NCBI GenBank assembly: GCA_964447495.1
Contig: CAYUTF010000003.1
Span: forward strand, 1-64,000
Length of the DNA: 64,000 nt
Direction of reading: 5' to 3'
Source of the DNA: an uncultured archaeon
GTDB lineage: Archaea > Asgardarchaeota > Lokiarchaeia > Sigyniarchaeales > SOKP01
Under the pieces are notes generated by a model, which was not told the DNA's origin, made no database searches, and saw nothing but the letters and a program-made list of their open reading frames with translations. Below are positions 1 to 39,778 of this stretch, in pieces. A program made the translations under genes and the position numbers. How positions within the stretch are numbered: the first letter of the stretch is position 1; the number at the start of each line of letters is the position of its first letter.

Positions 1-253
1 CATCTCTTTTTAATTTTGAGAGAATTGGATAAATAGTACCTGATTGAGCTTCCCACGTTCCTGCAAAATGATTATTTAAAATATAAATTAAATCATATCC
101 CGAGATTTGTTGATAATTAAATATTGTTTCGATAATTGTAAATTCGAGAGGGGTTAACTTGCTCTTTTTTATATTGGTAAAGATTTGTTTTTCGATTTTT
201 GAGCGTAATTCATTAATATCCTCCTCCAAATCTAAAAATTTTCCTAACCACAA
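1..253 (-). CDS. PadR-family transcriptional regulator (partial, runs off window start)
   Basis: Manually translated from TTG at 253: LWLGKFLDLEEDINELRSKIEK...LEFTIIETIFNYQQISGYDLIYILNNHFAGTWEAQSGTIYPILSKLKRD. SGYDL and GTIYPIL are PadR wHTH motifs. Not in the ORF track. Confidence 0.85.
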   Translation of the reverse strand, partial: MWLGKFLDLEEDINELRSKIEKQIFTNIKKSKLTPLEFTIIETIFNYQQISGYDLIYILNNHFAGTWEAQSGTIYPILSKLKRD

Positions 254-277
254 TTCTTCCCAAACTCCATTTTAATT

Positions 278-790
278 TTATGATTTAAGTCTTTTTTTCA
301 TTTTTTCTAACTCCTTCTCAATTGCTCTTGTTCTTTTAGAGTATAGTTTCCCATGTTCATCAATCTTTCTCTGGTAATAAAGAAGATAAGTAACGATATG
401 AAATATTAGTGCTATTCCCCAAAAAATAATAGGATATAAAACCCACAAGATTTCTGGAAGAGTAAAAACATTAATTAATATAAGGAGTAGGATAGTAAAT
501 AAATAAGCGTCTAAGTGAAATATTACGCTCCTTTTAGCCATCGGAAACACTCCTCTTGCATATAAAATGTAAGAGAGAGTATGGATCGAAACTCCTATTA
601 ACCAACCAAAGAAAGGATAAATTATCCATAAATGTAAAGGAGAAGAGACTAAATTGATGATTAAAAGAAGAGTCGAAACTATTAAATACACACTTAAATG
701 TATTCTAACAGAATATCTGAAGTTTACCTTCTGTTGAGCAATTTTTCTTAGACTTTCCTCTGAAAAACCATTATAAAATACTTTTCTCAC
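278..790 (-). CDS. Membrane protein with two tandem 2TM domains
   Basis: Two repeats of the H-L-x-x-Y...L-I-N...W-x-x-Y-P...W-G/L-I-x-x-x-x-H pattern. Probable GTG start at 790 (ORF track extends to 916). Confidence 0.7.
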   Translation of the reverse strand: MRKVFYNGFSEESLRKIAQQKVNFRYSVRIHLSVYLIVSTLLLIINLVSSPLHLWIIYPFFGWLIGVSIHTLSYILYARGVFPMAKRSVIFHLDAYLFTILLLILINVFTLPEILWVLYPIIFWGIALIFHIVTYLLYYQRKIDEHGKLYSKRTRAIEKELEKMKKRLKS

Positions 791-986
791 CTTTAGAATG
801 ATAATTGTATTTTTAAATTGATAAAATTTAGAATTATAGATAGATTCAACAATTGATATGTAGAATAGACAATAAAAGTTTTTAAATCTTATCAAGATGA
901 TTAAAAGTATCAACATTATGATAAATAGGATAAAATTTTAATAGGTGAAATTATATCTATTTTAAATCCATAAGTTAATTGATGTT

Positions 987-1637
987 ATGTCTGCATTATC
1001 GGAATATCTTGAAAAGTTAGAGGATTGGGATAATAGAACTTTCTTGAGTTTATATAATAGTGATTTTAGCCATCGAACTAAAGCTTTCGCTAAAAAATTT
1101 TCCTTTTTTGGAAGTTTATTCTTCTGGGGAGGGGTCTGGTTGGTATGGTGGTTGTATAGTTATATAACAAAGGATTATTATTTACTTGTAATATTCACTA
1201 GTGGCTTTGAGCAGTCAATTTTAATCCATATTCTTATTCGTTATAAAATTGTTAAAAGAAATCGGCCATTCATAGCCCTTAAAAATGAGGGTGTACAAAA
1301 ACATGATGCTTACATAAGAATCCCTTATGTGATGTCAGATTCCGAACATAAATCCTTTCCCAGTGGCCACGTTACCTTTTTCCTATTTTTTGGTATCATC
1401 TTTGCTTGGTATTTTAATAGTTGGCTTATTATTTCAATTTTTATAGCACTTGATATTATAATGGCAGGTTCTCGTATAATATTAGGAGTTCATTATCCTA
1501 CAGATGTGTTATTCGGATTTGTGTTTGCGATTATTTATGCTTTCTTATTTCTTGGATTCACGTATAATTACTGGGTTATATTTTATTATTGGATTGGTCC
1601 GATTTTCTCAGACATAGTACATTTTAGATTTCTATGA
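987..1637 (+). CDS. PAP2-family membrane phosphatase
   Basis: KRNRP, SFPSGH and SRIILGVHYPTDV motifs; hydrophobic helices. Confidence 0.9.
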   Translation: MSALSEYLEKLEDWDNRTFLSLYNSDFSHRTKAFAKKFSFFGSLFFWGGVWLVWWLYSYITKDYYLLVIFTSGFEQSILIHILIRYKIVKRNRPFIALKNEGVQKHDAYIRIPYVMSDSEHKSFPSGHVTFFLFFGIIFAWYFNSWLIISIFIALDIIMAGSRIILGVHYPTDVLFGFVFAIIYAFLFLGFTYNYWVIFYYWIGPIFSDIVHFRFL

Positions 1638-4771: not shown

Positions 4772-4794
4772 AAAGAAAAACAAAAAAAAAGGAA

Positions 4795-5334
4795 TTATTT
4801 ATTTTTTATATCTTTTGCGTCATCCTCAATTTTATCATAGTATTCGATGTCCATGAGACCGCCTGATCGTTCTTCCCTCCAATGGGCCTTTATCGGCATC
4901 CCTACATAAGTATCTTTTACATCTATATCTGGATGTAATTCCGCGATATTGGACGTATCACTGCCATCATGATGGACCAAAACCATCGGTCTTTCTTTAA
5001 TTTCTCCCGTTTCAGAATCCTTTAAATAGGCAATGGCATAAGTTGATACACTAGCTGTATCCCTTATATCAACCCATTTATCAGGTTTCACTAAACATTT
5101 ACCGCATACTAATCTAGGGGGATAAAACACTCGATTACACCCAGAACATCTATTTGCTACAAGCTTTTTCTCTTTTAATTTATCTAAAAATGGTTTCATG
5201 TGAGTTATGTTGAATTTATATTTGTAACTAGTAAGATGCCAGGTTGCGGGCATGGTGCGGGTTCTTACATAATCCTTTTTCACATAATCTAATGATTTTC
5301 TCTGAGTCATTTTTGACATCTTTTTCACCTCCAT
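4795..5334 (-). CDS. DUF35 (Zn-ribbon + OB-fold) acyl-CoA-binding partner of thiolase-like proteins
   Basis: CSGC...PPRLVCGKC, then an OB-fold ending VGMPIKAHW; last gene of the thiolase-like operon. Confidence 0.85.
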   Translation of the reverse strand: MEVKKMSKMTQRKSLDYVKKDYVRTRTMPATWHLTSYKYKFNITHMKPFLDKLKEKKLVANRCSGCNRVFYPPRLVCGKCLVKPDKWVDIRDTASVSTYAIAYLKDSETGEIKERPMVLVHHDGSDTSNIAELHPDIDVKDTYVGMPIKAHWREERSGGLMDIEYYDKIEDDAKDIKNK

Positions 5335-6572
5335 TTTCTTTGGGGTTGATCAGACATAGCCATCAATGTAATAAGATTCAGGCTACCACCCCATCCCGAT
5401 CCTATAGAAGTATGAACTGTTTTGGGTACTTGATTGCTTGCTTTTCCCATAATTTGAAGAGCAGCTTCAGCAGGTCTTTCCATAGCAGAAGCACCTATTG
5501 CATTGGTGGAGTTTACACCCCCTGAGCAATTAACAGGTAATTCTCCCTTTAATGCAGTGACACCATTCTTATACATTTCAGGAGCGGTCGTTTCCTCAAA
5601 AAGCCCTAGTTTCTCTGTCCATAAGAGCTCTTGATTTGGAAAAGGTGCATACACTTCAGCATAATCAATTTCCTTTCTGGGAAATGAAATTCCTGCTTGC
5701 GCATAGGCTAATTCGGAGGATCTGATTGCACCTAATTGCATAGAGGGATCAACTTGAGCCGATCCCCCACCATCATATCCTAATACTGCACTTTCATTGG
5801 CAACGCTCGCCACACCATTAACATATACCGGGATATCACACATATCTTTTGCCTTTTCTTCTGTGGTAAAAAGCATCGCACAAGCACCATCACTTGCTGG
5901 ACATACCATCCCATATCGTAAAGGATATTGAACATAGGGCGTATCTAAAACATCTTCGATAGTTAAATTTGGCATTTTTAAGTGAGCCCACCATGTTTTT
6001 GCTGCATTATGTCGGTTTTGGACAACTACTCTTGCTAAATCTTCTTCGGTAATTCTTGTTTTGTTCATATATGTTGTGGCTTGATAAGCGGCAACTCCAA
6101 TTGCAGCTCCAGCTGATAGAAGACGTGTTATTTGATCATAAGAAATCCCAAGAGTATTTAAAATAGAAATTTCACCGTATGCAACGCTAGCTAAACCAAC
6201 ACTCGTGTCACCTTGAGATTGTTGTTCAAAGGCAACTGCTAAAACGGTATCAATACCGGGCAATCCTGCGGTCACCGTATAATACCCTGCGATTGCCACA
6301 CTACCACCCGTGGTTCCACCCGTGGTCACTCGCATTAGGGGTTTGTTTCGGGCTCCCATCCAATCAGTCATCCATAATTCAGGGATATTAGAGCCCTCAA
6401 AAGCTGGCATATTCCCATTAACATAGGCGTTAATATCATCAAATCCTACGCTTGGTACCTTCTTTAAACAATCTTCAACTGCTTCGCTGACCAATTCTCC
6501 CATATTGACATCTGAACGTTTTGATGCATGTTCACTAAATCCTGCAGATACAATTGCTACTTGTTTTCCCAT
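5325..6572 (-). CDS. SCPx-type thiolase-fold protein, Ltp3-like (probable retro-aldolase)
   Basis: FEGSNIPEL, RVTTGGTTGGS, CPASDGACA, AEVYAPF, VNCSGG...NAIGAS; closely parallels actinobacterial Ltp3 motifs as I recall them. Confidence 0.8.
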   Translation of the reverse strand: MGKQVAIVSAGFSEHASKRSDVNMGELVSEAVEDCLKKVPSVGFDDINAYVNGNMPAFEGSNIPELWMTDWMGARNKPLMRVTTGGTTGGSVAIAGYYTVTAGLPGIDTVLAVAFEQQSQGDTSVGLASVAYGEISILNTLGISYDQITRLLSAGAAIGVAAYQATTYMNKTRITEEDLARVVVQNRHNAAKTWWAHLKMPNLTIEDVLDTPYVQYPLRYGMVCPASDGACAMLFTTEEKAKDMCDIPVYVNGVASVANESAVLGYDGGGSAQVDPSMQLGAIRSSELAYAQAGISFPRKEIDYAEVYAPFPNQELLWTEKLGLFEETTAPEMYKNGVTALKGELPVNCSGGVNSTNAIGASAMERPAEAALQIMGKASNQVPKTVHTSIGSGWGGSLNLITLMAMSDQPQRKWR

Positions 6573-9584: not shown

Positions 9585-11291
9585 TTGAAAAGTTTAATGA
9601 AGTTTTCACAATCTGACGATCAATATGAGAACAGCAGTGAAAAAAAAGTAAAGAGGAAATATGAAAAGCTTGCGAAAGCCTCCTTCTTCTCTGTTTTAAA
9701 TACATATAGTACATTCATTTTCTCAATTATTTCCTCTTTTCTAATTGCAAGATTAATTGATGATATTCAATGGAGCTCTTTCACTGTAGCATTATCATTT
9801 ATTCAAATTATTGTCCTAATATTGAGATTCTTCCCCCCGGAATTAACTAATACCCTATATTATTATATCCCTCATTATCATTCTCTTGGTATGCATAGAG
9901 AGCTCAAAACTTTCATTTATAGAGCATTTACCATAAAACTAGTTTTTCTCATTCCAATTTTCCTAATTAGCGTAATATTTTTCAATTTCTTCTCGAGCAT
10001 TTTTCTAACAAATTGGACTTCAGAAAATGTGCAAATTTTAATCATCCTCTCTCCTCTCATCATAATAAATGATATCAATTTAGTATTAAACTCAATCAGT
10101 ATTGGATTTAACCGTTTCAAATTTGTTTTAATTCTTTCTATAATTCAATATTCGTGTTACATTAGCTTTTTGTTATATCATTTTATTTTTTACCAAACAA
10201 TCAATTTGATTTCTCTCTCTATAGCATTTCTAATTGCTACCACTATACCATTTATTTTTAATATAATTATAAACGTTATTAAGATGCGTGAACTGAAAGT
10301 AGAGGGTAAGAGTTCGTTTAAATTTAAACATGATTTTCAGAAAATTATTAAATATGGAGGATTTGTAAGAGCTGGTAACTTCTTTTCTGAAATTTTGGGA
10401 GATCTTCAAGTGATTGCAGTTAATTCTTTTGAACAACCCTCTGTAATGGCTATAAAAATCTCAAGGGATTTCATATCAGTTTCAAAAAATACCTCAAATG
10501 CTATTGCAAATCCATTGATAGTATCATTTACTTCTTCCATTGCTACAAAAGAAAGAGGCATAATTGTATCGATCTACAATACTATGTTGAAATATTTAAT
10601 TTTCTTCATCCATATAATTACTGGTGTGCTCTTTTTTAGTATCAGGATTCTAATTTTTTTGATATATGGCGAATCTCGCTTAATTTATTCCAATATTGTG
10701 AGCTTATATATATTTACTACAGTGTTCGTTATCATAACGATTCCTTTGGATTCATTATTGTTGGCTGATAATAAAACAAAAACTTTTTTTTATTTACGTT
10801 TTGGGGGATTCTGTTTACATCTTCCAGTCTTTTTAATATTGTTAATATTTTTTGGACTATATGAAGCCGTACTAGGGTTAAATCTCACTAATTTAGTTGT
10901 AGGGATACTGTATATGATTATAACGATTAAATCAAAAGCAATAAAGATTGATATCAAACGAATCTGCTTACATTATTTAGTATTTTTCATGGCAATAGTC
11001 TTTACTTTTGGTTTGGAATTCTTATTTCTTAACAATTTGAATAGTCTACTGTGGTCTTCCTTGAATTTTATGGTTATTAGTGACTTTAATATCTTTAGCG
11101 TTTTATCATTTGTCCTGATTTATTTCCTTCTTATAGGATTATTCAGAATTTTGACTCCGACTGACATCGAAAACTTACAGTTATTTTTAAGTAAAGAGAA
11201 GCAAATACATAAAATAACTAATAAATTACTGAATATATTTAAGAAAATCTTACAAAAATTATCACGAAATGATTCAAATCCTCCAATCTAA
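9585..11291 (+). CDS. Oligosaccharide flippase (Wzx/MOP superfamily)
   Basis: About 14 TM helices, N-terminal pattern typical of polysaccharide exporters, adjacent GT4. Confidence 0.75.
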   Translation: MKSLMKFSQSDDQYENSSEKKVKRKYEKLAKASFFSVLNTYSTFIFSIISSFLIARLIDDIQWSSFTVALSFIQIIVLILRFFPPELTNTLYYYIPHYHSLGMHRELKTFIYRAFTIKLVFLIPIFLISVIFFNFFSSIFLTNWTSENVQILIILSPLIIINDINLVLNSISIGFNRFKFVLILSIIQYSCYISFLLYHFIFYQTINLISLSIAFLIATTIPFIFNIIINVIKMRELKVEGKSSFKFKHDFQKIIKYGGFVRAGNFFSEILGDLQVIAVNSFEQPSVMAIKISRDFISVSKNTSNAIANPLIVSFTSSIATKERGIIVSIYNTMLKYLIFFIHIITGVLFFSIRILIFLIYGESRLIYSNIVSLYIFTTVFVIITIPLDSLLLADNKTKTFFYLRFGGFCLHLPVFLILLIFFGLYEAVLGLNLTNLVVGILYMIITIKSKAIKIDIKRICLHYLVFFMAIVFTFGLEFLFLNNLNSLLWSSLNFMVISDFNIFSVLSFVLIYFLLIGLFRILTPTDIENLQLFLSKEKQIHKITNKLLNIFKKILQKLSRNDSNPPI

Positions 11292-16751: not shown

Positions 16752-17292
16752 TTAGATGAAAAAGGGAACCGCAAGCGCCAAAATACCAATTATAATTGGA
16801 AATATACTCATAATTAATAAAATTAAACCGATTATCGCTGCAATCACCTCAAATATAGGGAAATTTGTTTCATTTATGCCTTTAGCGCTAAATACCACTG
16901 CTACTATGGAAAAAGGGATTACCAATAAATATAAATAAAAATTTGCTACTGTCCCCCGAATCGTAAAATAAATAAAATCCCTCATAAAAGCTCGGCGGAG
17001 TTACAATTAGGTAAATTAATAGCCCAATAATCGCGGAAATTATTGAAATAATTGCATATTTTGTGAAATAATCTTGAATTCTTCTTGGAATCTGCCACCC
17101 AATATCACGAAGCTTTATAAGTAAAATCCCAATCCCTCCCAATACTACTAAGAGAATCCCCACAAGTATCGCTGGAAATCCACCAGAGCTTAAAAGCCCA
17201 GACGTTCCCATATCGAATCCTAATAATAACAATCCTAAAAGCATTACTAAAAGCGGAATTTTATACCTTTCTTGAAGGAAATTTCCAACCAT
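16752..17292 (-). pseudogene. Frameshifted membrane protein gene
   Basis: Two overlapping hydrophobic ORFs (16888-17292 and 16752-16985) join as ...TPPSF/MRDFIYF... if one base of the A4 run at 16986-16989 is removed. Confidence 0.55.
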
Positions 17293-17453
17293 AATAATTA
17301 TATATTTAGATGTTTATCTTTAAAAAGATTTATTCCATTCAATACCGTTGGATAATAAAGAAGGAGGTTAGTAGCCATGTTATCTTTTCTTTATTTTACG
17401 TAATACTTTAATTAAATTCTCTATTTGGTTAGAAACTTGTCTATTATCCTTGC

Positions 17454-18002
17454 TTAATTTTTTTCCTTACAATTTGGGCACACAGAGACTCCCTCATCCA
17501 ATGGAGCTCCGCAATGCTTGCAAATGCGTTCTTCCCTATCCTCAGTTTTCTTGGTTGAGGGGACGACATTTGTTTGGGCTGCCGCATCCAAATCATCTGG
17601 GGGGCTCGGAGGATTATAAATATAGGGATATGGAAACCCAGGAAAACGGTCTTTTCCAGAATCTAATAAATTTCTGCCTAAGTGTATATCTTTATCTGCG
17701 GACACTAATAGAATTGCATTTGGACCAGCCTTGGAAACTAAAAGATAGCCGTCACTCCCTTTAATGGAGAGTTCATCGAAATCTCCCCTATTCATGTCAA
17801 AGATTGCCTGTTTTGATAATGAGAATAGAGCTGCGCTCAATGCAGCAATCTTGGTCTCATCGATATCGCGAGGTAAAATCCAGGAAATCGGCAGACCTTC
17901 AGTCGAGGCGATAGCTACTGCTCTTACTCCTGAGATTGCGGCTAATAATTTTTTAAGTAAATCATCGAGCGAATCTGGTGTACTGGGCTCCACTTTGGAC
18001 AT
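17454..18002 (-). CDS. Roadblock/LC7 (MglB-like) protein with Pro-rich linker and C-terminal Zn ribbon
   Basis: VAIASTEGLPIS...IAALSAAL...LSIKGSDGYLLV; FPYPYIYNPPSPPDD; CKHC..CPNC. Confidence 0.88.
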   Translation of the reverse strand: MSKVEPSTPDSLDDLLKKLLAAISGVRAVAIASTEGLPISWILPRDIDETKIAALSAALFSLSKQAIFDMNRGDFDELSIKGSDGYLLVSKAGPNAILLVSADKDIHLGRNLLDSGKDRFPGFPYPYIYNPPSPPDDLDAAAQTNVVPSTKKTEDREERICKHCGAPLDEGVSVCPNCKEKN

Positions 18003-18182
18003 TCTCCATTTTATACCAAAAATTATTTGACGAGGATTAAAAGTCTTACGAAAAGGAATTGTTCTGTAATATTTATTTATTTCTACTCCACTATCATTAT
18101 AGATAATATAACTTTTTATGTTATTAATTTTATAATTGAATTGATAAGATAAAACCCGATTTCAAAGAGGAGGTTTCACAGA

Positions 18183-19532
18183 ATGTACGATAAGAATTTT
18201 AAAATCATCATTTTTGGAGATGGCGGAACGCCTAAACAAGAACTCGTCCAGCGATTTTTAACTAATTTATATACTACAGACTCAAAAATGACGATAGGCG
18301 TAGATTTTAATGTAAAGAGTCTCATTGTTGATAAACAGAAAGTTAAATTACAAATTTGGGTTTTTGGAGGAGAGGAACGATTTCGGTGTCTTATTCCAAC
18401 TTACGTAAGAAGGGCTCGGGGTGGTATTTTCGTTTATGATATAACCAATTACTCAACGCTCGCCCATATTGATGACTGGTTAAAGATAATAAGGAAAGAA
18501 ATTGGTGTAGAAGATTGTTTTCCCATATTAGTCGTTGGAGGAAATGCAGAGCTAAGCGAGTATCGAGAAGTACCGGCCGAGGATGTCATCAAAATAGCGA
18601 AACCAAGAGGTCTTGATGGCTTTATAGAGTGTAGCGCCAAAACGGGAGAGAATGTAGAGGAAGCATTTAAAGCCTTAACAAGGTTAATCTTAAATTGCCC
18701 TCAAACAAGAGAAACTGGAGTTAGAACTGCTATTACTGATACAAACAGATATGATGTAACACATCCTGCTAGATTAGATCAGTATAAACCAAGAGAACTT
18801 GGTGCAACAGTTCCAGCTACTCCCGTTAGTTTAAGAGGGGCAATAATGAGTGAATTAAAACAAATATTAAATACACGAGTTTCGCAAAAAAATGAGAACA
18901 GAACTAGAGATATGAAGGAAAGAAGGGAAGAAATAGAAAAAATTCTTTCCAAAATCCTTGATAATAATAGGTTTCATCCCCCAACTTCCTCTACACAAAA
19001 ATATTTGGAACAACCTAATAGTACTGTTAAAATTGGTATAGATCAAGCGAAACAGAGTATATTGGATGATCCTGAAATAAAAATAAAAAGAATTCTGGAA
19101 TTGGAAAAGGAAAAAAAGAGAGAACAATCATTTTCACGAATAATCAAACGACTACAAGAAGCAACTCAACTCAAGGATAAAATGTTTATGGAACAGGATT
19201 TAGGAGAGTGGTTAGAAACTTTGAAGGGTTTAAAGAAGGGATGTGAAGAAATATTAATGTTTCTCAGAGATAAGAATCAAGAATATTATCATCATATTTC
19301 ATTTGAACAATGGAAATATTTACTAAGGGTCTCTTCAGAAATGTTAGAAGAATTCAAAGCGAATTCCTCATCTTTTTATAAAATGAGCGATGATACTAAA
19401 ATCAACCTCTATATTTTGTTTGAAATTTTTATCCCTTGTCGGGAAATATTAGGCGACGGTTCATTTGGGAAAAATGTTAAAGTAACCTTTGAGGAATATC
19501 TAAAAATGCTCAAACGAAAAAGAAATTCGTAA
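18183..19532 (+). CDS. Rab-like small GTPase domain (degenerate G1/G3/G4) fused to a long helical C-terminus
   Basis: FKIIIFGDGGTPK, TIGVDF, KLQIWVFGGEERF, FVYDIT, ECSAKTGENVEEAF. Confidence 0.88.
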   Translation: MYDKNFKIIIFGDGGTPKQELVQRFLTNLYTTDSKMTIGVDFNVKSLIVDKQKVKLQIWVFGGEERFRCLIPTYVRRARGGIFVYDITNYSTLAHIDDWLKIIRKEIGVEDCFPILVVGGNAELSEYREVPAEDVIKIAKPRGLDGFIECSAKTGENVEEAFKALTRLILNCPQTRETGVRTAITDTNRYDVTHPARLDQYKPRELGATVPATPVSLRGAIMSELKQILNTRVSQKNENRTRDMKERREEIEKILSKILDNNRFHPPTSSTQKYLEQPNSTVKIGIDQAKQSILDDPEIKIKRILELEKEKKREQSFSRIIKRLQEATQLKDKMFMEQDLGEWLETLKGLKKGCEEILMFLRDKNQEYYHHISFEQWKYLLRVSSEMLEEFKANSSSFYKMSDDTKINLYILFEIFIPCREILGDGSFGKNVKVTFEEYLKMLKRKRNS

Positions 19533-19565
19533 ATACCTAGAAAAGTATGGGAAATCAGTATAGAT

Positions 19566-21431
19566 TTATATAGATTGATCTTTAACTGGCTTCGAACCTA
19601 ACAATTCGAGAATTCTATCAAAATCACTAAATTTAAAAGATTTAAAGATAATGCCGTTTGCACCGGTCTCTTCCATATGTCTCTCCACTTCAGAGCCAGG
19701 AAGAGTAGTAAAAAAAAATACCGGGATATCTTTCCACTTTGGATTTGATCTTATCCGTTTGCAGAGTTCATATCCACTATAATCGGGTATTATAATGTCT
19801 AGCAATATTACTTTAGGGATGTTATTGTTTAGTTCCTCAAATCCTTTTTTCCCGCCGATAACTCCTTTGCAGGAATAACCCTTACTTTCAAAATACGCCA
19901 TTGGCAATCTAATTGTATCTGGATAGCCATATCCTTCAACAAAAAGGATATCATAATAAGTACGTTCTGTTTTTTGTTTAATCTCTTCTTTGAAAAAAAT
20001 CGGAATGGAATCGGGAATAAGGAAATCATTTCTTATTCTCTTTTCAAATTGATGGAGGTGAGGTGGATAAACACCTATTTGCAATATTTTTTTAAAAACT
20101 AACCATCTAATATATGTTTCTATTGTAGATTTTATCTCTTCATTTTCTTTATCATTCAAGTGTTTTTTTAATTCCTGTTTTAATAGGTCTTCAAATCCCC
20201 TTTTTTTTTGTTCTAATTTTTTTCCATACTCTACTTTTTCTTCTTCTTCTTTTCTTCTTTCTTCAATCTTTTTGGATTCTTTCAGTCGTTTTAAACTTCT
20301 TATTTTTGAACGGAAAAATTCTTTTTTACATTCTCTCCTAGTCTTAATGGCATATTTATACAATCTCTCTAAAAACTCAATAATCTCCTTATAGTGAGTT
20401 TTTTTCTCATTGGCAAAGATGTTTAATGGCTTCGTACCCACTTTCAATGCCCTCCTTTTAAGAGTTTCAATTATGGACTTTGCCATCGAAGGACTAATCT
20501 TCGGGCTTTCCTCAACTCTCATCATTTTGTATAAATCGGGATTCAGTGTTGCTATATGATGAAGTATTTCAATTCCCGTTGCTTCTTCTTTTAATTTTCT
20601 GAGAAGCACGCCATAAAAGTTTATTAACACTCCAAATTTTTCGGGAGAGTCCAGAAAGTCTTCTTTTAGGGTTCTTAATACAGGCATTACAATTTCTAAT
20701 TTCTTATCCTTTTTTTTTTCAAATTCTTGACTTACCCTTTGTTCATCCGATTTAAGATTGCCCTTGCTTTTTGAAACTAGATCTTCGCTTTTTATTTTCT
20801 CTTTTTTAACTTTAGGCTTTTTTAAGGTTTTAATAAACTTTTTCTTTATCTTAAAAGATTGTTTTTTAATCTCTTTACCTTCTTTTTCCGAACAACTAGT
20901 AAATTTACTTTCGGTTCGTTTTAATATTAGCTGTGTCATTACTTCAAATGTTTTATTAACATTTTGCCCTGTTTTGGCAGATATCTCTGAAAATGATGCT
21001 AATTCGTTCTTTTCAGCAACTTGAAGTCCATATTCTCTTGTAATTTGACGTTGTGTTTCTGCAAGATCGAGATTTGTTCCGACAAGCATAATTGGAATAT
21101 TTCCTGATTTTTGACGTACTATATTAGTCCAATCACCAATATGACCCAGAGTTTGGGGGTTTGTAATATCATAAAGTATGAACACTCCATTTGCTCCTAA
21201 ACAATAGGTTGGTAATAAAAATCTGAATCGTTCTTCTCCTCCCACATCCCAAATCTTAAGCTTGATCTTTTTTCCCCGAACTTCAACCGTTTTTACATGA
21301 AAATCAACCCCAATTGTCAGTCTCTCTGATGGATTGAAAATATCATAGCAATACCGCTTAGTAAACGCAACTTTTTCTACGCTCTCATCTCCCAATAACA
21401 ATATCTTGAATTCATAGTAGTATGAAGACAT
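19566..21431 (-). CDS. Rab-like small GTPase - charged helical linker - response-regulator receiver (REC) fusion
   Basis: N-term FKILLLGDESVEK, TIGVDF, WDVGGEERF, EISAKTG; C-term DILFVE...PKVILLDIIIPDYSGYELCKRIR...IPVFFFT...GANGIIFK. Confidence 0.88.
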   Translation of the reverse strand: MSSYYYEFKILLLGDESVEKVAFTKRYCYDIFNPSERLTIGVDFHVKTVEVRGKKIKLKIWDVGGEERFRFLLPTYCLGANGVFILYDITNPQTLGHIGDWTNIVRQKSGNIPIMLVGTNLDLAETQRQITREYGLQVAEKNELASFSEISAKTGQNVNKTFEVMTQLILKRTESKFTSCSEKEGKEIKKQSFKIKKKFIKTLKKPKVKKEKIKSEDLVSKSKGNLKSDEQRVSQEFEKKKDKKLEIVMPVLRTLKEDFLDSPEKFGVLINFYGVLLRKLKEEATGIEILHHIATLNPDLYKMMRVEESPKISPSMAKSIIETLKRRALKVGTKPLNIFANEKKTHYKEIIEFLERLYKYAIKTRRECKKEFFRSKIRSLKRLKESKKIEERRKEEEEKVEYGKKLEQKKRGFEDLLKQELKKHLNDKENEEIKSTIETYIRWLVFKKILQIGVYPPHLHQFEKRIRNDFLIPDSIPIFFKEEIKQKTERTYYDILFVEGYGYPDTIRLPMAYFESKGYSCKGVIGGKKGFEELNNNIPKVILLDIIIPDYSGYELCKRIRSNPKWKDIPVFFFTTLPGSEVERHMEETGANGIIFKSFKFSDFDRILELLGSKPVKDQSI

Positions 21432-21663: not shown

Positions 21664-21940
21664 ATGCCTTATGATTATGATATTCTTTTAGTTGAAACTA
21701 TACACAGGATATTGGGCAACCTCAATGGACGATATTTACATCGGTTATCAAATTCTCGGTCTACTAATCATCCAGTCAAAATCTCTCATGCCGCAGGAAG
21801 TTTATGATGCCATAATGTTCTCTACGAGTTGGAAATACGATAAAACAAGAATCTGGGCAAAAGATTATATCCCATACCGAAAAAGGAATCTTCAGTTATT
21901 TAGAGATTTAATCCTTCAATGTAATAAAAATAAAGAATGA
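21664..21940 (+). pseudogene. Probable chimeric gene remnant (REC-like N-terminus plus unrelated C-terminal fragment)
   Basis: ATG at 21664 reads MPYDYDILLVE (REC beta-1-like); the protein-like reading then continues in another frame (21692-21940). Confidence 0.35.
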
Positions 21941-25055: not shown

Positions 25056-25427
25056 ATGGATTCATTGCAAGTCGAAAGTATTAACAAAGAACTAAATAAG
25101 TTTGAATTATTAGCGGGAATTCTGGGTTTGGCAATTGTTGATCGTAATGGTCTTACAATCCTTTCTCGGTTACCGCGATCAATTGAAGAACGTAAGTTTG
25201 GAGCTATGGCTACTACATTAATAGGGGCAATGGAAACCGCTACTGCTCCTTTTAAAGAAGATTTAATTAATCTAACTATTGAATTTGAAAATTCTCAACT
25301 AATAATAATGAGTTCAGATACTAATATTATCTTGGTTGTTTTTACTGAACTTGGGATTGATTTAGGATTTATGTTAATTGAAATAGAAGAGATTTTAACA
25401 AATATTAAAAATATTTTACGAGGTTAA
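25056..25427 (+). CDS. Roadblock/LC7 domain protein
   Basis: GILGLAIVDRNGLTI, FGAMATTL, LTIEFENSQLII, LGFMLIEI. Confidence 0.85.
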   Translation: MDSLQVESINKELNKFELLAGILGLAIVDRNGLTILSRLPRSIEERKFGAMATTLIGAMETATAPFKEDLINLTIEFENSQLIIMSSDTNIILVVFTELGIDLGFMLIEIEEILTNIKNILRG

Positions 25428-25433
25428 ATTGCT

Positions 25434-26186
25434 ATGCTAACAGAAGAAGAAAAGGAAAGATATAGTAGACAGATTATCTCTCCTTCAATAGGAGAAAAGG
25501 GTCAAGAAAAATTAGGTAAAATTAGTGTATTACAAATTGGTGCTGGCGGTCTTGGTTCTCCGTTTGCATTATATATAGTCTCTGCGGGGATAAAAGAATT
25601 GACGATTATAGATAATGATGTCGTTTCACTTTCTAATTTACAGCGTCAAATTCTTTACGGAGAAAAACAAATAGGTATGGATAAGGTTAATGCTGCTAAG
25701 AGTGTTTTAAAAGAACATAATTCAAAAGCACAAATCAAAGTATATAAAGATTATATTGACGATAAATCAATGAAGAAATACATTGATGAGAAGAATTATG
25801 ATTTTATTGTTGACTGTAGCGATAATTTCAAAACCAAATTTTTAGTAAATCGAACAGCTATAAACTATAATATTAAATGTGTTATAGCTGGGATTAAGGA
25901 TTTTTATGGTCAAATAATGAGTATTGATCCAAAGAATTCAGCATGTTATCAATGTGTATTTAATGAACCTTCAGAACTTCAAGGAGTTTTAGATCCACTC
26001 CCCGTTATTGGGGTTACACCTGGGATTTTGGGTACTTTAGAAGCATTAGAGGTGATAAAAACTACTTTAGGATTGCCAAATTTAGAAAATAAGTTATTAA
26101 TGGTTAATTTACTAAATCTCAAGTTTGATGCTATCGATCTCGTGAAAAATGAGAAATGTATTTGTTCTCAAAAGAGAAAAAAATAA
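25434..26186 (+). CDS. ThiF/MoeB/UbaA-family E1-like adenylyltransferase
   Basis: RYSRQ, GAGGLG, DNDVVSLSNLQRQ, DCSDN, CYQC. Confidence 0.9.
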   Translation: MLTEEEKERYSRQIISPSIGEKGQEKLGKISVLQIGAGGLGSPFALYIVSAGIKELTIIDNDVVSLSNLQRQILYGEKQIGMDKVNAAKSVLKEHNSKAQIKVYKDYIDDKSMKKYIDEKNYDFIVDCSDNFKTKFLVNRTAINYNIKCVIAGIKDFYGQIMSIDPKNSACYQCVFNEPSELQGVLDPLPVIGVTPGILGTLEALEVIKTTLGLPNLENKLLMVNLLNLKFDAIDLVKNEKCICSQKRKK

Positions 26187-30780: not shown

Positions 30781-32271
30781 TTAAAATTTATCAAAAAATT
30801 GAGTAATCCTTAATTGTTTTTTATCATCAAGAAATTGTAAGAAACTAGTCGTTGGTTTTCCATTCCATAATGCACTACTTGAGTTTTTAGTTTCGAACTT
30901 CTCAATATCCTTGTGAGTAAAATTATAATTATTCATGTGATCTTTAAGTTTAAAAAGCCACTTTACAAAATTCTTATATAATCTTCCGTTAATTCCCGCT
31001 TTCGATTTATGATATTTCTCATAATAGATTTCATCATTTTCGGTATATTCTGTGTAATAACGGAAATTCTGCCCCATCCAAAAAAAGTTTGAAACTGAAT
31101 CCGAAAAGTCACTAATCCTACAATCAGTTAGTTTAAGCATTTCAAGCGAATTTAAATCTTCAAGGAATTCAGGAATCTTATTTATATTGATATTACCTGA
31201 AAGGTCAAGAGTTTCTAATTTCTTTAATTCCTCGATACCTTCTATTTCTTTTATGTAATTATTTTTTAAATTCAACTTCTTTAGATTTATGAAATTTTCC
31301 AGTCCTTTTATCATTGTTATTCTGTTATTACTCAAATCTAATTCTTCAATTGACTCACTAATACTATCTAAACCTTGAATATCTGGAATATGTTCTATCA
31401 TTTTATTTCTTAAATTTAGAGTATTATCAATAACTAGACCAATTAAATTATTATGATATTTTACAATTTTAAAGTCTAATTCATCATAATTTATTTGAGC
31501 TTTATTTAGGAACTTTAAAAGAGGAAATCCTCTGTAATTCTTGTATTTATTATAGATTAATTCTACGAAATTTCGTCGATAATTAAATGGAATTTTTTCC
31601 ATCGCTTTAATTAGGATCAAATATTTGTAAGAAAACTGAAATGTGCCTAAAAATTTCGTTGTTGATTTTTTAATTGAAGAGATAGAATCAGGACTATCAA
31701 TTTCACTAAGGTGGTTAGATACTTTTCTTGAATATTCATCAATACTGGGGAAATCAATATCACCTAAAACACTCTCAAACTCCTCTTCAGTTAAATAATA
31801 CAAGTAACCATTTTGGGTTAAAAATCGAACTACAGTTGGATGTCCTGTAGCATACCGAATTGCGATTTCCTCTTTAAATCGACTTTTAGCTAAGGGGTCT
31901 CCTGCATCTGCTAAAGCTTTAAGCAAAGGAAAAGCTAAATTACGATGAAGTATACGCGTATCATAATTATTATCTGCCCAAGCTTGAAGATTGGAACAAT
32001 GACCCCAAAATTCTGTTTCAGGTGGAATTAAGTTATGATTACGCTCCATTTTACGATTCAACTTTGTTGCAGCTTCATCTATTGATCTGATCTCGTCATA
32101 TTCTTCTATTTTATCAATAGGAATATTTATTAATAGATACATACACTGTCTAAAAGGTCGATTGTTAACATATATAACAGTTCTTCTATTTTCTAATTTC
32201 AAGCTCATATACTCATTGATTTTGAACTCATTATTTCTGGGTTTGCTTCCTAAACTATTATTGAGAAACAT
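30781..32271 (-). CDS. Lokiarchaeal leucine-rich repeat protein with C-terminal PIP-box
   Basis: N-term EFKINEY..LKLE...FRQC...EFWGHCSNLQAW; LRRs LDLSNNRI, LNLKNNYI, LDLSGN; C-term QLRITQFF. Confidence 0.85.
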   Translation of the reverse strand: MFLNNSLGSKPRNNEFKINEYMSLKLENRRTVIYVNNRPFRQCMYLLINIPIDKIEEYDEIRSIDEAATKLNRKMERNHNLIPPETEFWGHCSNLQAWADNNYDTRILHRNLAFPLLKALADAGDPLAKSRFKEEIAIRYATGHPTVVRFLTQNGYLYYLTEEEFESVLGDIDFPSIDEYSRKVSNHLSEIDSPDSISSIKKSTTKFLGTFQFSYKYLILIKAMEKIPFNYRRNFVELIYNKYKNYRGFPLLKFLNKAQINYDELDFKIVKYHNNLIGLVIDNTLNLRNKMIEHIPDIQGLDSISESIEELDLSNNRITMIKGLENFINLKKLNLKNNYIKEIEGIEELKKLETLDLSGNININKIPEFLEDLNSLEMLKLTDCRISDFSDSVSNFFWMGQNFRYYTEYTENDEIYYEKYHKSKAGINGRLYKNFVKWLFKLKDHMNNYNFTHKDIEKFETKNSSSALWNGKPTTSFLQFLDDKKQLRITQFFDKF

Positions 32272-37512: not shown

Positions 37513-38130
37513 ATGACAGAAAAAGCTAATGAAAAGACGGAAAAAACTCAATTTGAGGCAATTATTGAAGATGAAAAAGTCTTTATCTTTGATAAAAATG
37601 CCATAGAAGAATTTTACAAAAGTTCTTATATTGGAATATTAGAAACATCTGATAATGATGATGTGAAATTAATTTTAGACCCTACGGAAGTTCTTCTTTT
37701 ATGTGAAAGAAACAGAATTTTAATATGGAAAGATAATGATAAAACAAAGGAATTGTATGATTTTGAAAGTTTATTAACCTATTTCACTCATTTTGACCAA
37801 AGATTATGGCAAAAATATATAATATACATGGATTTACGAAAAAGAGGGTATATTGTGAGAGCAGGATATGGTGAAGGAATCGATTTTCTTGTTTATAAAC
37901 GAGGATCGGATTTTGAAACAGATTCTGCAAAATTCTTGATTTATCCTGTTTTTGAGGGAGATCCAGTCGAACTAAAGGAGTTAGATAGGATGTCACGAGT
38001 AGCTTTAAGTTCTCGCAAGGACTTAATTGTTGCTACTGTAGACAGATTGAGTAAGCCAATTTATTATAGTGTAAACAAATTTGAAATTATTAATAAAATA
38101 AATATAAATGAAGAAGAATATGCCCGATAA
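37513..38130 (+). CDS. endA: tRNA splicing endonuclease subunit (possibly the structural subunit)
   Basis: YMDLRKRGYIVRAG...DFLVY...RVALSSRKDLIVA; catalytic His position apparently absent. Confidence 0.8.
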   Translation: MTEKANEKTEKTQFEAIIEDEKVFIFDKNAIEEFYKSSYIGILETSDNDDVKLILDPTEVLLLCERNRILIWKDNDKTKELYDFESLLTYFTHFDQRLWQKYIIYMDLRKRGYIVRAGYGEGIDFLVYKRGSDFETDSAKFLIYPVFEGDPVELKELDRMSRVALSSRKDLIVATVDRLSKPIYYSVNKFEIINKININEEEYAR

Positions 38131-39778
38131 ATTTGCATGTGATACTTCTGTTATATTTAACGGTCTTATCATAGATTTAATAGAAGATGGCGAATTAGGA
38201 GACCATCCCGCGATTTTCATATCGAATATTGTAGTGGCTGAAATTGAATATCGAACAAATATTCAAAAGGAAATTGGATTCTATGGATTAAATGTATTAA
38301 AAAAATTACGACAATTTCATAATGATGGAATAATTACCCTCCATGTCGTTGGACATCGTCCTACTCGAGAAGAGATAAAAATGGCACCCGGGGGCGAATT
38401 AGATGCACTGATTCGAGAAAGTGCTGGTGAGAATCATGCGATCTTGATAACTGCTGACAAGATCCAAGGTGATGTGGCCATATTTGAAGGAATTGAAGTA
38501 ATGCCAATAAAGGAGAAAGTGATACATAAAGAAATTCCTCCCAAATCTTTAATGATTATGAGTTTTTTTGATGAAGATACGATGAGCATACATCTAAAAA
38601 CAGGTTTACCTGCTTATGCTAAAAAGGGGAGCCCTGGAAACTGGTATATGGAAGATGTAGCTGAGGAAATCATTGATAAGAAAAAAATTGAAGATATTGC
38701 TTTAGAAATTATCGAATATGTGCGTGAAGATCCCCACTCTTTTGTAGAAATTGAAAAGTATGGAGCCGTAGTAACTCAACTACGTGATTTACGAATTGTG
38801 ATAACCCGTCCCCCATTTTCTAACGATGTTGAGATTACAGCAGTCAAACCTCTCGTTAATTTCACTTTGGAAGATTATTCATTAGATAAACGAATTAGAA
38901 GAAGATTAGAGAAAGCAGAAGGCATCTTAGTTTCAGGATCTCCGGGTGCAGGAAAAAGCACGTTTTCAGCAGCCTTAGCTAATTATTATTCAGAACAAAA
39001 CAAAGTTGTTAAAACGTTAGAAAGTGTAAGGGATTTGCAAGTGAACCCAAAAATTACACAATATACAAAGTTAGAGGGGAGTTTAGAAAATTCGGCAGAT
39101 ATTCTCCTTCTTGTGAGACCGGACTACACAATTTTTGATGAAGTACGAACTACCAAAGATTTTCAAATATTTGCGGATTTTAGGTTATCTGGTGTAGGTA
39201 TGGTAGGTGTTGTTCATTCATCTTCGGCTATAGATGCGATACAAAGATTTATTGGTCGCATTGAACTTGGTATGCTTCCATCAATAATAGATACGATTAT
39301 ATTTATTGAAAAGGGTGATGTATCAACAGTTCTTGCATTGAAAATGACAGTTAAAGTACCACATGGCTTTCGAGATAAGGATTTAGCCCGACCTGTCGTG
39401 GAAGTGAGAGATTATTTAACCAAAAAATTAGAGTTTGAGTTGTATTCCTTTGGACAAGATATTGTAGTCAATCCAATAAATCCATCAAAATCCAAAAGAG
39501 ATATGAATAGTTCAGATGATAATCTTAAACTTGATAAATGGCAAAACAGTGGTGATAAAATTCCTTTAGATATTATTGAATTTAAGAAAAAAGTTATCAT
39601 TCGTGCTGATGAAGAATATGCGAGTAGAAATATTAATGTATATGCTGATAAACGTATTATTTTTAGCGGTTCATTAAGTAGAAGTGCTGAAATATCACTT
39701 TCTTTAACCAATAGAGATGCAAAACAAGTATCAAAAGAATTAAAGAAGAATTCTGAAATCTATGGAATTTTAAAATAA
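38120..39778 (+). CDS. PIN-domain ATPase (PINA, Holliday junction branch-migration ATPase family)
   Basis: N-term PIN (DTSVI...DALIR...LITAD), Walker A GSPGAGKST, FDEVR, GMVGVVH. Confidence 0.9.
   Translation: MPDKFACDTSVIFNGLIIDLIEDGELGDHPAIFISNIVVAEIEYRTNIQKEIGFYGLNVLKKLRQFHNDGIITLHVVGHRPTREEIKMAPGGELDALIRESAGENHAILITADKIQGDVAIFEGIEVMPIKEKVIHKEIPPKSLMIMSFFDEDTMSIHLKTGLPAYAKKGSPGNWYMEDVAEEIIDKKKIEDIALEIIEYVREDPHSFVEIEKYGAVVTQLRDLRIVITRPPFSNDVEITAVKPLVNFTLEDYSLDKRIRRRLEKAEGILVSGSPGAGKSTFSAALANYYSEQNKVVKTLESVRDLQVNPKITQYTKLEGSLENSADILLLVRPDYTIFDEVRTTKDFQIFADFRLSGVGMVGVVHSSSAIDAIQRFIGRIELGMLPSIIDTIIFIEKGDVSTVLALKMTVKVPHGFRDKDLARPVVEVRDYLTKKLEFELYSFGQDIVVNPINPSKSKRDMNSSDDNLKLDKWQNSGDKIPLDIIEFKKKVIIRADEEYASRNINVYADKRIIFSGSLSRSAEISLSLTNRDAKQVSKELKKNSEIYGILK

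Follow-up and report, generated by a model that had tools for sequence, protein, structure and literature searches.

In our study, a stretch of 64,000 nucleotides from contig CAYUTF010000003.1 of an uncultured Asgard archaeon (Lokiarchaeia, Sigyniarchaeales; hereafter the window) has been analysed around a three-gene locus at positions 17454..21431. One gene encodes a Roadblock protein with a proline-rich tail and a zinc (Zn) ribbon, and the other two, gene 1 and gene 2, encode longer proteins with Rab-like guanine-nucleotide-binding (G) domains in which canonical G motifs have been lost. We lean towards the view that the three products would form a Roadblock-scaffolded complex of Rab-derived pseudo-GTPase (guanosine triphosphatase) adaptors with a receiver input, a reading that takes both the loss of nucleotide binding and the binding to Roadblock from sequence features.

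Two Rab-like domains with altered nucleotide-binding motifs

Gene 1 (18183..19532, forward strand) encodes 449 amino acids with the G domain at about 18195-18692, and gene 2 (19566..21431, reverse strand) encodes 621 amino acids with the G domain at about 20919-21416. Both domains matched the Pfam Ras family (PF00071; 4.9e-37 for gene 1 and 2.9e-41 for gene 2), which places them in the G-domain fold, and the best solved relatives of both were Rabs (Rab3A, Ypt6, Rab11 and Thor-Rab, 1e-33 to 1e-35). The Rab-type motifs TIGVDF, KLxIW, ERFR, YDIT and SAK, already pointed out in a first-pass annotation of this DNA, can be read in both translations. The G motifs were read from the translations and then aligned to solved Rabs, gene 1 to Ypt6 and Rab11 and gene 2 to Rab3A. 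In gene 1, the P-loop GDGGTPKQ (18216-18239) stands against GEQGVGKT of Ypt6, with Pro in place of the Gly before the Lys and Gln in place of the Ser/Thr; G3 is WVFGG against WDTAG, the Asp having become Val, and G4 is GGNAEL against GNKSDL, with GNAE at the NKxD positions. The P-loop of gene 2, GDESVEKV (21369-21392), differs from GNSSVGKT of Rab3A in carrying Glu for Gly and Val for Ser/Thr; its G3 motif WDVGG is intact, and its G4 is GTNLDL against GNKCDM, with TNLD at the NKxD positions.

Hence in both G domains the P-loop has lost the Gly preceding its Lys as well as the Ser/Thr that binds Mg, and NKxD has lost Asn and Lys; gene 1 is additionally without the G3 Asp and the G4 Asp. Neither of them agrees with the G1 consensus GxxxxGK[ST] or the G4 consensus [NT]KxD, and both fall under the sequence definition of a pseudo-GTPase, that is, a G-domain fold without one or more G motifs. 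The first-pass annotation had described the two P-loops as broken in different ways and gene 1 as having lost the G3 Asp and NKxD, which the alignments to Ypt6 and Rab3A have confirmed; its list was incomplete, as the NKxD of gene 2 is also lost. Its remark that neither protein has a C-terminal prenylation Cys agrees with the chain ends ...KRKRNS and ...PVKDQSI. Contigs of runs X2, X3 and X4 over the gene-1 P-loop site, and of X2 and X3 over the gene-2 site, showed zero differing letters; the runs may share one sampling campaign, and the P-loop letters are not assembly errors because contigs of other runs carry identical ones.

The changed Gly and Ser/Thr positions of the P-loop are those of Ras G15 and S17, and the G4 positions those of Ras N116/K117/D119. 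Mutants of Ras of the S17N and G15A types have lowered nucleotide affinity and are used for capturing exchange factors (PMC4905258). From the motifs we infer that both G domains are probably 'nucleotide-dead'.

Conservation of the substitutions among relatives

According to the first-pass annotation, P-loop substitutions confined to this genome would have spoken for simple decay. They are not so confined, the exception being the Val after the Lys in gene 2, which is private to this genome. In the gene-1 orthologues (P0001-P0013; the full-length ones are 45-57% identical over the full length), the P-loop is variable and mostly non-canonical, and G4 is of the NRAH or GNAE type. WV at G3 is common to gene 1 and its nearest orthologues, P0001, P0004 and P0006, and GGNAE or GGNVE is common to P0001 and P0004. 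A tree of G domains was built with the G1 and G4 columns masked, from a short alignment and with moderate supports; in it the gene-2 G domain groups with P0233 (GEASVEKT), P0129, P0063 and P0153 (support 0.94), beside canonical single-domain proteins, and Glu before Lys is common within this group. For the G domains compared with their relatives, the ratio of nonsynonymous to synonymous substitution rates (dN/dS) amounts to 0.09-0.23, with synonymous sites saturated, and the 449- and 621-codon frames are intact in DNA of ~31-35% G+C.

In a sample of 230 multidomain proteins of 246-1087 amino acids returned for genes 1 and 2, a non-canonical G1 was found in 184 of the 230 complete motifs, against 6 of the 120 best single-domain relatives (96-308 amino acids) of the gene-2 G domain, the two samples being drawn with different queries and length windows. 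The organism's own genome (3.81 Mb in 223 contigs, 98% complete) holds 74 Ras-family matches, and the P-loop is canonical in 64 of 71. Among the relatives, Lys16 is retained in 204/222, the switch-I Thr in 220/232, the G3 Asp in 195/234 and the G3 Gly in 208/234. The P-loop replacements are non-random and acidic residues dominate: at the Gly position (89 changes) Glu was found 38 times, Pro 14 and Asp 11, and at the Ser/Thr position (110 changes) Glu 33 times, Lys 16 and Gln 15. The G4 motifs are highly varied (NRAH, SKLH, IVPE, TNLD and others). Since the masked tree shows non-canonical multidomain forms scattered among canonical single-domain ones, a repeated origin is suggested, which we take as a lead.

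A canonical paralogue of the gene-2 G domain (GDASVGKTSF) is present in the own genome (C21, ~10779-11290, reverse strand) and in two further genomes, at L049 (G113:C33, ~4800-5333, forward strand) and L050 (G139:C25, ~4790-5400, reverse strand). In all three genomes no ATG, GTG or TTG precedes its conserved N-terminus, and an in-frame TAA lies two codons upstream. At the place of the gene-2 ATG there is an ATT, following GGTGT, which suggests that translation starts at a conserved ATT codon.

Linkage and fusion of the three genes

The Roadblock gene (17454..18002, reverse strand, 182 amino acids) is divergent from gene 1, which is convergent with gene 2; the layout first described thus matches the open reading frame (ORF) coordinates. 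The divergent intergenic region (18003..18182) comprises 180 base pairs (bp) of AT-rich DNA and presumably holds promoters, and the stop codons of genes 1 and 2 are separated by 33 bp. An absence of conserved linkage had been named as evidence against a module, and synteny rejects it, as linked genes of these types are found again in a second genome of the genus, in a different genus and on two contigs from metagenomes. In the congeneric genome (G110:C139), a gene-1-type gene joining G domain, Roadblock and Zn ribbon, apparently frameshifted, is convergent with a gene-2-type G gene (GDESAEKS). In the other genus (G088:C72), a gene-2-like G gene (GDPSSGKE), a Roadblock-Zn gene and a divergent gene-1-like G gene, whose P-loop is one residue short, stand together. 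Of the metagenome loci, L044 carries a gene-1 orthologue divergent from a gene for a G-domain protein (GDASVDKT), and L043 one convergent with a small G gene followed by a gene for a pseudo-receiver protein, so called because Thr occupies the position of the acceptor Asp.

Fusions join the same parts in single chains. P0022 unites a gene-1-type G domain with Roadblock and Zn ribbon, P0144 and P0146 do the same with a gene-2-type G domain, and P0129 consists of a gene-2-type G domain and Roadblock. Residues 6-182 of the Roadblock-Zn protein are 59% identical to the C-terminal half of P0144 (9e-64) and 54% to that of P0022 (4e-53), and its best matches in species genomes reach only 49-53%, below these fused halves. 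In P0352, the end of the gene-1 cassette (the C-terminal part of gene 1, described below) is joined directly to Roadblock, tail and Zn ribbon beginning with PSTPDSLDDLL, as the window protein does. The gene-1 orthologues P0001 and P0004 have tail and Zn ribbon after the cassette, and P0002, P0003 and P0014 show a tandem G-G-cassette order, with a second degenerate G domain before the gene-1-type protein.

A G-domain gene was found beside the Roadblock-tail-Zn gene in 6 of the 8 other loci with a full-length gene of this kind; with a chance of roughly ~0.08 per locus the binomial probability is 6e-6, a significance which is overstated since the genomes are related and do not count as independent samples. 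Of the 13 G domains beside Roadblock-tail-Zn genes, the two of the window included, 9 are non-canonical, compared to 7/71 in the whole own genome. As to whether the three genes form a module, the comparative evidence of fusions and recurrent synteny says yes, as far as sequences can tell. The module interpretation of the first-pass annotation is partly supported, namely in the linkage, the clade-shared substitutions and the distinct output domains. The module is accessory and its locus mosaic.

At the congeneric locus (L046 in G110:C139, 96-1616), the neighbours of the module are two PIN-domain genes and one small gene resembling an antitoxin gene, assigned by sequence appearance only. On contig C45 of the own genome, a G domain with Glu before Lys (GEASTEKT; 1-661, reverse strand) lies 260 bp from a Roadblock gene (921-1388, reverse strand) at a contig end.

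The Roadblock-Zn protein

The 182-amino-acid protein gave a whole-domain Pfam match to Robl_LC7 (PF03259; 2e-17, residues 13-101, profile positions 2-90 of 91) and belongs to the Roadblock/LC7 family. The Roadblock domain is encoded at about 17700-17966, the proline-rich tail FPGFPYPYIYNPPSPPDDLD at about 17589-17645 and the CxxC...CxxC ribbon at about 17460-17531. The Zn-ribbon matches (7e-5 and 1.2e-4) were slightly under the Pfam cut-offs and two CxxC pairs are visible. The closest solved relatives are the Roadblock proteins 7F8M (7e-17) and CvnB5 3LEQ (9e-8), and dN/dS of the gene is 0.14-0.18. A complex of two Roadblock domains (1-118) with the gene-1 G domain (1-178), predicted with alignments for both, obtained a median score of 0.63, compared to 0.53 for one unrelated-partner control, and was given no weight for or against binding. 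The idea that the proline-rich and Zn tail marks a hub in the own genome was rejected: the strict pattern occurs once, and the other tail-profile matches are short C-terminal stretches, taken uninspected as generic Zn ribbons.

The receiver of gene 2 and the cassette of gene 1

The first-pass annotation had spoken of different output domains, and these can now be named: gene 2 ends in a receiver, and gene 1 in a helical cassette of a narrow family. In gene 2, the G domain is followed by a Lys-rich linker (~20691-20906), a helical middle region (~19977-20690) and the receiver (~19602-19964), a domain that the annotation had left unnamed. The receiver matched Response_reg (PF00072; 7.6e-13, residues 511-604), the match beginning only at profile position 15. 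It keeps the phospho-acceptor Asp, the LLD of KVILLDIIIP aligning with the LLD/LTD column of relatives, as well as the Thr and the Lys, so that it has the family match and acceptor of a receiver but lacks the N-terminal acidic pair (DD). The C-terminal 374 residues of gene 2 are 76-84% identical to the stand-alone response regulators P0122, P0124, P0125 and P0127, and gene 2 therefore looks like a G-domain copy fused to a response regulator. For the middle region, there was no convincing match in 160 other species genomes of the class (one marginal at 9.7e-4) and no usable match in the Atlas, and its structure model, with a predicted local distance difference test score (pLDDT) of 55, was too low to use for a fold search. 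The Lys-rich linker and the proline-rich tail with Zn ribbon of the Roadblock protein may supply localisation or further partners. An unnamed recurrent domain (EFWGHCSN...AGDP.A..VFK.EIA.R..SGYP), often doubled and often closed by a Zn ribbon, was seen after the G or receiver domains of relatives (L043:1817-3070, L044:1630-3174 and L046:3042-4322, all on the reverse strand; P0123, P0063 and P0128).

In gene 1, a long charged linker (~18693-19187) leads to the C-terminal cassette (19188-19529), 114 amino acids predicted to form a helical bundle. The cassette is ~90% identical in nucleotides between the window and four metagenome contigs (L042, L043, L044 and L045), compared to ~65-70% for the G domain, and its proportion of synonymous differences (pS) is 0.19-0.25 against 0.71-0.77 for the G domain, where synonymous sites are saturated. 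The conservation break, at the last 345 nucleotides of gene 1, coincides with an internal ATG at which, in L045, a separate cassette gene of 116 amino acids begins. This nucleotide conservation suggests recent exchange of cassette DNA as its simplest reading. An RNA explanation was rejected, as the sole Rfam match is at chance level (E 0.59) and lies elsewhere in the stretch, and 0 of 100 predicted pairs were compensatory. Only 5 clusters among 1.84 billion representatives carry the cassette.

The structure model of the cassette has a pLDDT of 66, and Foldseek gave no match in the PDB at E 0.001 or better. Two candidate identities were rejected. The N-terminal domain of IST1, at the top of the VIA wide search (Z 7.7, root-mean-square deviation 3.4, 105 aligned), is within helical-bundle noise, and Cullin_binding/PONY, an Atlas lead (0.86, 128 shared features), is under the trust level of the Atlas and was unseen by Pfam at E 10. 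The protein collection also has a 228-amino-acid form of gene 1 (P0351; window 18846-19529) starting at Met222. This form is probably a gene-calling variant, because the 449-amino-acid frame has a Shine-Dalgarno-like GAGGAGG (18167-18173, nine bases 5' of the gene-1 ATG) and matches the full-length orthologues.

Genomic surroundings

The module is flanked in the window by metabolic and housekeeping genes. The MtrH-like and HgdD genes on its two sides are 36 bp apart in G117:C4, and the module is therefore an indel relative to that contig. To the left lies a membrane-protein gene (16752..17292, reverse strand; ORFs 16888..17292 and 16752..16985) that had been annotated as frameshifted, and rightly so: the two ORFs correspond to residues 4-114 and 113-186 of one intact 186-amino-acid ORF in G138:C197 (1.3e-36 and 7e-16). 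No indel difference was found at this site in contigs of runs X2, X3 and X4, and no Pfam family matched the two ORFs. To the right, an orphan ORF of 82 amino acids (21692..21940, forward strand) had been called a gene remnant. This description was not borne out, as the ORF gave no Pfam or PADLOC family and has no homologue in the own genome. A receiver remnant was also rejected as unsupported, with just a 7-residue match to receiver proteins (E 0.27-0.97). Run X16, from an RNA library, gave three short contigs at 17436-17712 and 20060-20216; such contigs do not show transcription.

A further Roadblock gene (1.5e-9; window 25056-25427, forward strand) lies directly upstream of a ThiF/E1-like gene (25434-26186, forward strand; 2e-64). 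In G117:C4, the HgdD pair is likewise followed immediately downstream by a Roadblock gene. The window also encodes a 496-amino-acid leucine-rich-repeat protein (30781-32271, reverse strand) and a 556-amino-acid protein with PIN and T2SSE/STAND-like ATPase matches (38108-39778, forward strand).

Proposed mechanism and alternative explanations

In the proposed mechanism, the Roadblock protein with its proline-rich tail and Zn ribbon would form the usual Roadblock dimer platform, and both Rab-derived G domains would dock onto it in a predicted 2:1:1 assembly. As the P-loop and the base-recognition motif are changed at positions where mutation reduces the nucleotide affinity of Ras, the G domains would be permanent nucleotide-poor adaptors and not timed switches, and they would bind the platform stably, like a nucleotide-free GTPase on its exchange factor. 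An assembly of the Rag/Ragulator or MglA/MglB/RomR kind may in this manner couple the gene-2 receiver, a possible phospho-input with an atypical acidic pocket, to the gene-1 cassette as effector or adaptor; both the phosphorylation of the receiver and the cellular output are presumed steps.

A number of observations weigh against this mechanism. The kept Lys16, switch-I Thr and SAK, together with the DxxG of gene 2, would also fit weak or altered nucleotide binding, and the active MglA GTPase works without the G3 Asp (PMC4316618). The excess of non-canonical P-loops in multidomain over single-domain relatives comes from samples that differ in query and length, and in the own genome a Roadblock gene lies within 3 kb of 3 of the 7 non-canonical G domains against 9 of the 64 others, which is only suggestive. 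The receiver is without the usual Mg-binding acidic pair (VEGYGYPDT against VEDD/VDDD in P0124-P0127) and has Lys-Ser in place of Lys-Pro, and it may perhaps not be phosphorylated; none of the 39 ORFs scanned in the window from 278 to 39778 encodes a histidine kinase. The module is also rare and therefore not a core cellular system: the cassette was missing from all 160 further species genomes of the class, 41 congeneric ones included, and the middle region had no convincing match there.

The main rival explanation is that the G domains are still nucleotide-regulated, with low affinity, fast cycling or an altered specificity (e.g., guanine specificity lost), and that the Roadblock-Zn protein acts as GTPase-activating protein or guanine-nucleotide exchange factor, as MglB does for MglA. 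We consider it possible, though rather unlikely. The residues listed above as kept in the window, the retention of Lys16, switch-I Thr, G3 Asp and G3 Gly in most relatives, the precedent of MglA and the constraint across the whole domain (dN/dS 0.09-0.23) agree with it. On the other hand, gene 1 is without five key residues together (G1 Gly, G1 Ser/Thr, G3 Asp, G4 Lys and G4 Asp), gene 2 has Val at the Mg-binding Ser/Thr position, and the G4 motifs of the relatives seem too varied for a new shared specificity. Simple decay, in which duplicated GTPase genes drift to pseudogenes and the linkage is incidental, could call upon the adjoining frameshifted gene, the private Val of gene 2 and the atypical receiver pocket. 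It is largely refuted and in our judgement very improbable, because the substitutions are common to the closest relatives, dN/dS is low, the letters are identical in other runs and the long frames are intact in AT-rich DNA; the relatives sharing the substitutions are 25-45% divergent, and the linkage and fusions recur.

The locus may also belong to a fast-evolving conflict system or one linked to mobile elements, serving in defence or, by means of a decoy, in counter-defence, with the degenerate domains as sensors or decoys. The patchy spread of the cassette (absent from all 160 genomes, 5 clusters of 1.84 billion representatives) points in this direction, as do the heavy domain shuffling among relatives, the ~90% identity of cassette DNA among contigs in which the synonymous sites of the G domain are saturated, indicating recent exchange, the PIN-type toxin-antitoxin-like genes flanking the congeneric locus and the indel relative to G117:C4. 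Against it, no PADLOC family was found among the five proteins tested, no integrase, nuclease or other effector domain was seen, the module is surrounded in the window by genes of metabolism and housekeeping, and related Roadblock-G pairs are widespread and chromosomal. We regard this explanation as improbable, and the Roadblock-bound adaptor complex continues to be our preferred reading.

As a more tentative extension of the adaptor reading, possible rather than probable, archaea of the Lokiarchaeia type may have repeatedly and convergently made pseudo-GTPase domains from one canonical Rab-like GTPase (GDASVGKTSF/WDVGGEERF/GSKID). In such domains, mostly acidic residues would have come to the Ras-G15/S17 positions and NKxD would have been scrambled, usually on joining a multidomain protein. 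The acidic side chain may lie in the phosphate hole left empty and stabilise the domain without nucleotide, a form that would permanently bind Roadblock-Zn platforms.

Comparison with known systems

The MglA-MglB(-RomR) system of Myxococcus and other prokaryotes shares with the window a small Ras-like G gene beside a Roadblock/LC7 gene; 390 of 449 MglA genes lie within four genes of mglB (PMC4316618), and the window shows the same proximity, its Roadblock gene adjoining gene 1 at a distance of 181 bp to the gene-1 start. RomR is a receiver protein with a proline-rich region, and both of these parts are likewise present in the window; there, the receiver is fused to a G domain, whereas the proline-rich tail with the Zn ribbon is on the Roadblock protein. 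The window further differs in having two G proteins per Roadblock gene, with non-canonical G1 and G4. The two G domains do not fall in the MglA family, as the best 60 solved relatives of each (of 169 and 192) were Rab-type or Thorarchaeota Rab and none was named MglA.

In the case of Rag on Ragulator, two different G domains are brought together via Roadblock domains, which is also proposed for the window. The relatives P0022, P0129, P0144 and P0146 have the Rag-like order of G domain and then Roadblock, whereas the window Roadblock is a separate gene. The G genes of the window have no Roadblock in the same chain and no Gtr1_RagA match at E 0.01, and both G domains group with the Rab-like and not the Rag/Arf-like paralogues of the own genome. 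The conservon of Streptomyces and Mycobacterium (CvnA-D/Mfp) similarly encodes a Roadblock protein with a small Ras-like GTPase and a two-component-type protein, a part which in the window is the receiver fused to the G domain; no CvnA-like sensor kinase and no DUF742 protein (CvnC) was found among the same 39 scanned ORFs. In the eukaryotic pseudo-GTPases CENP-M, the p190RhoGAP pG domains and Rnd, a G fold that has lost G motifs serves for scaffolding or interaction (PMC10211241), as is proposed for the window domains. Those of the window, however, are archaeal and Rab-derived, retain Lys16 together with the switch motifs and have Roadblock-Zn partners, and a single conserved canonical paralogue appears to have given rise to such domains many times.

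Dimers of Roadblock or longin domains are known to serve small GTPases as platforms, and fusions of such domains with GTPases are encoded in Asgard genomes (PMC10933270). The GTPase genes of MK-D1 are generally not in operons with Roadblock genes (PMC10933270, Tran et al. 2024); degenerate P-loops are not mentioned in the parts of this paper that were consulted, and the MK-D1 GTPase trees and alignments of its supplements might show P-loop states with a bearing on novelty. A description of archaeal pseudo-GTPases was not found in the literature searched, the archaeal passages of the review PMC10211241 concerning pseudokinases, and no Asgard GTPase-receiver protein is described in the papers listed, as judged by title and abstract. 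Roadblock-GTPase pairs (MglA/MglB, conservon, Rag/Ragulator), Asgard G-Roadblock fusions and eukaryotic pseudo-GTPases are thus known. Three features appear to be new, namely an archaeal pseudo-GTPase state of Rab descent that is conserved within a clade, the association of this state with a Roadblock-tail-Zn partner, and the fusion of a G domain with a receiver.

Conclusion

Our study has revealed a compact and testable trio, consisting of one Roadblock protein and two G domains with different lesions, for which the canonical paralogue in the own genome can serve as control. The relatives offer a natural series of G15/S17-type variants which can be used for biochemistry. The 'eukaryotic signature' systems of Asgard archaea include small GTPases with partners of the Roadblock or longin type, and these GTPases are usually discussed as switches. 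If the adaptor state with a tie to Roadblock-Zn proteins is true for a large share of the multidomain Rab-like proteins, Asgard 'GTPase' counts would overstate the number of switches, and the scaffold use of G domains known from Rag/Ragulator and CENP-M-like proteins would be older than the eukaryotes. If the tentative scheme of repeated origin is also true, these domains would be a prokaryotic forerunner of Rag/Ragulator-type and pseudo-GTPase scaffolds, wired here to a receiver.

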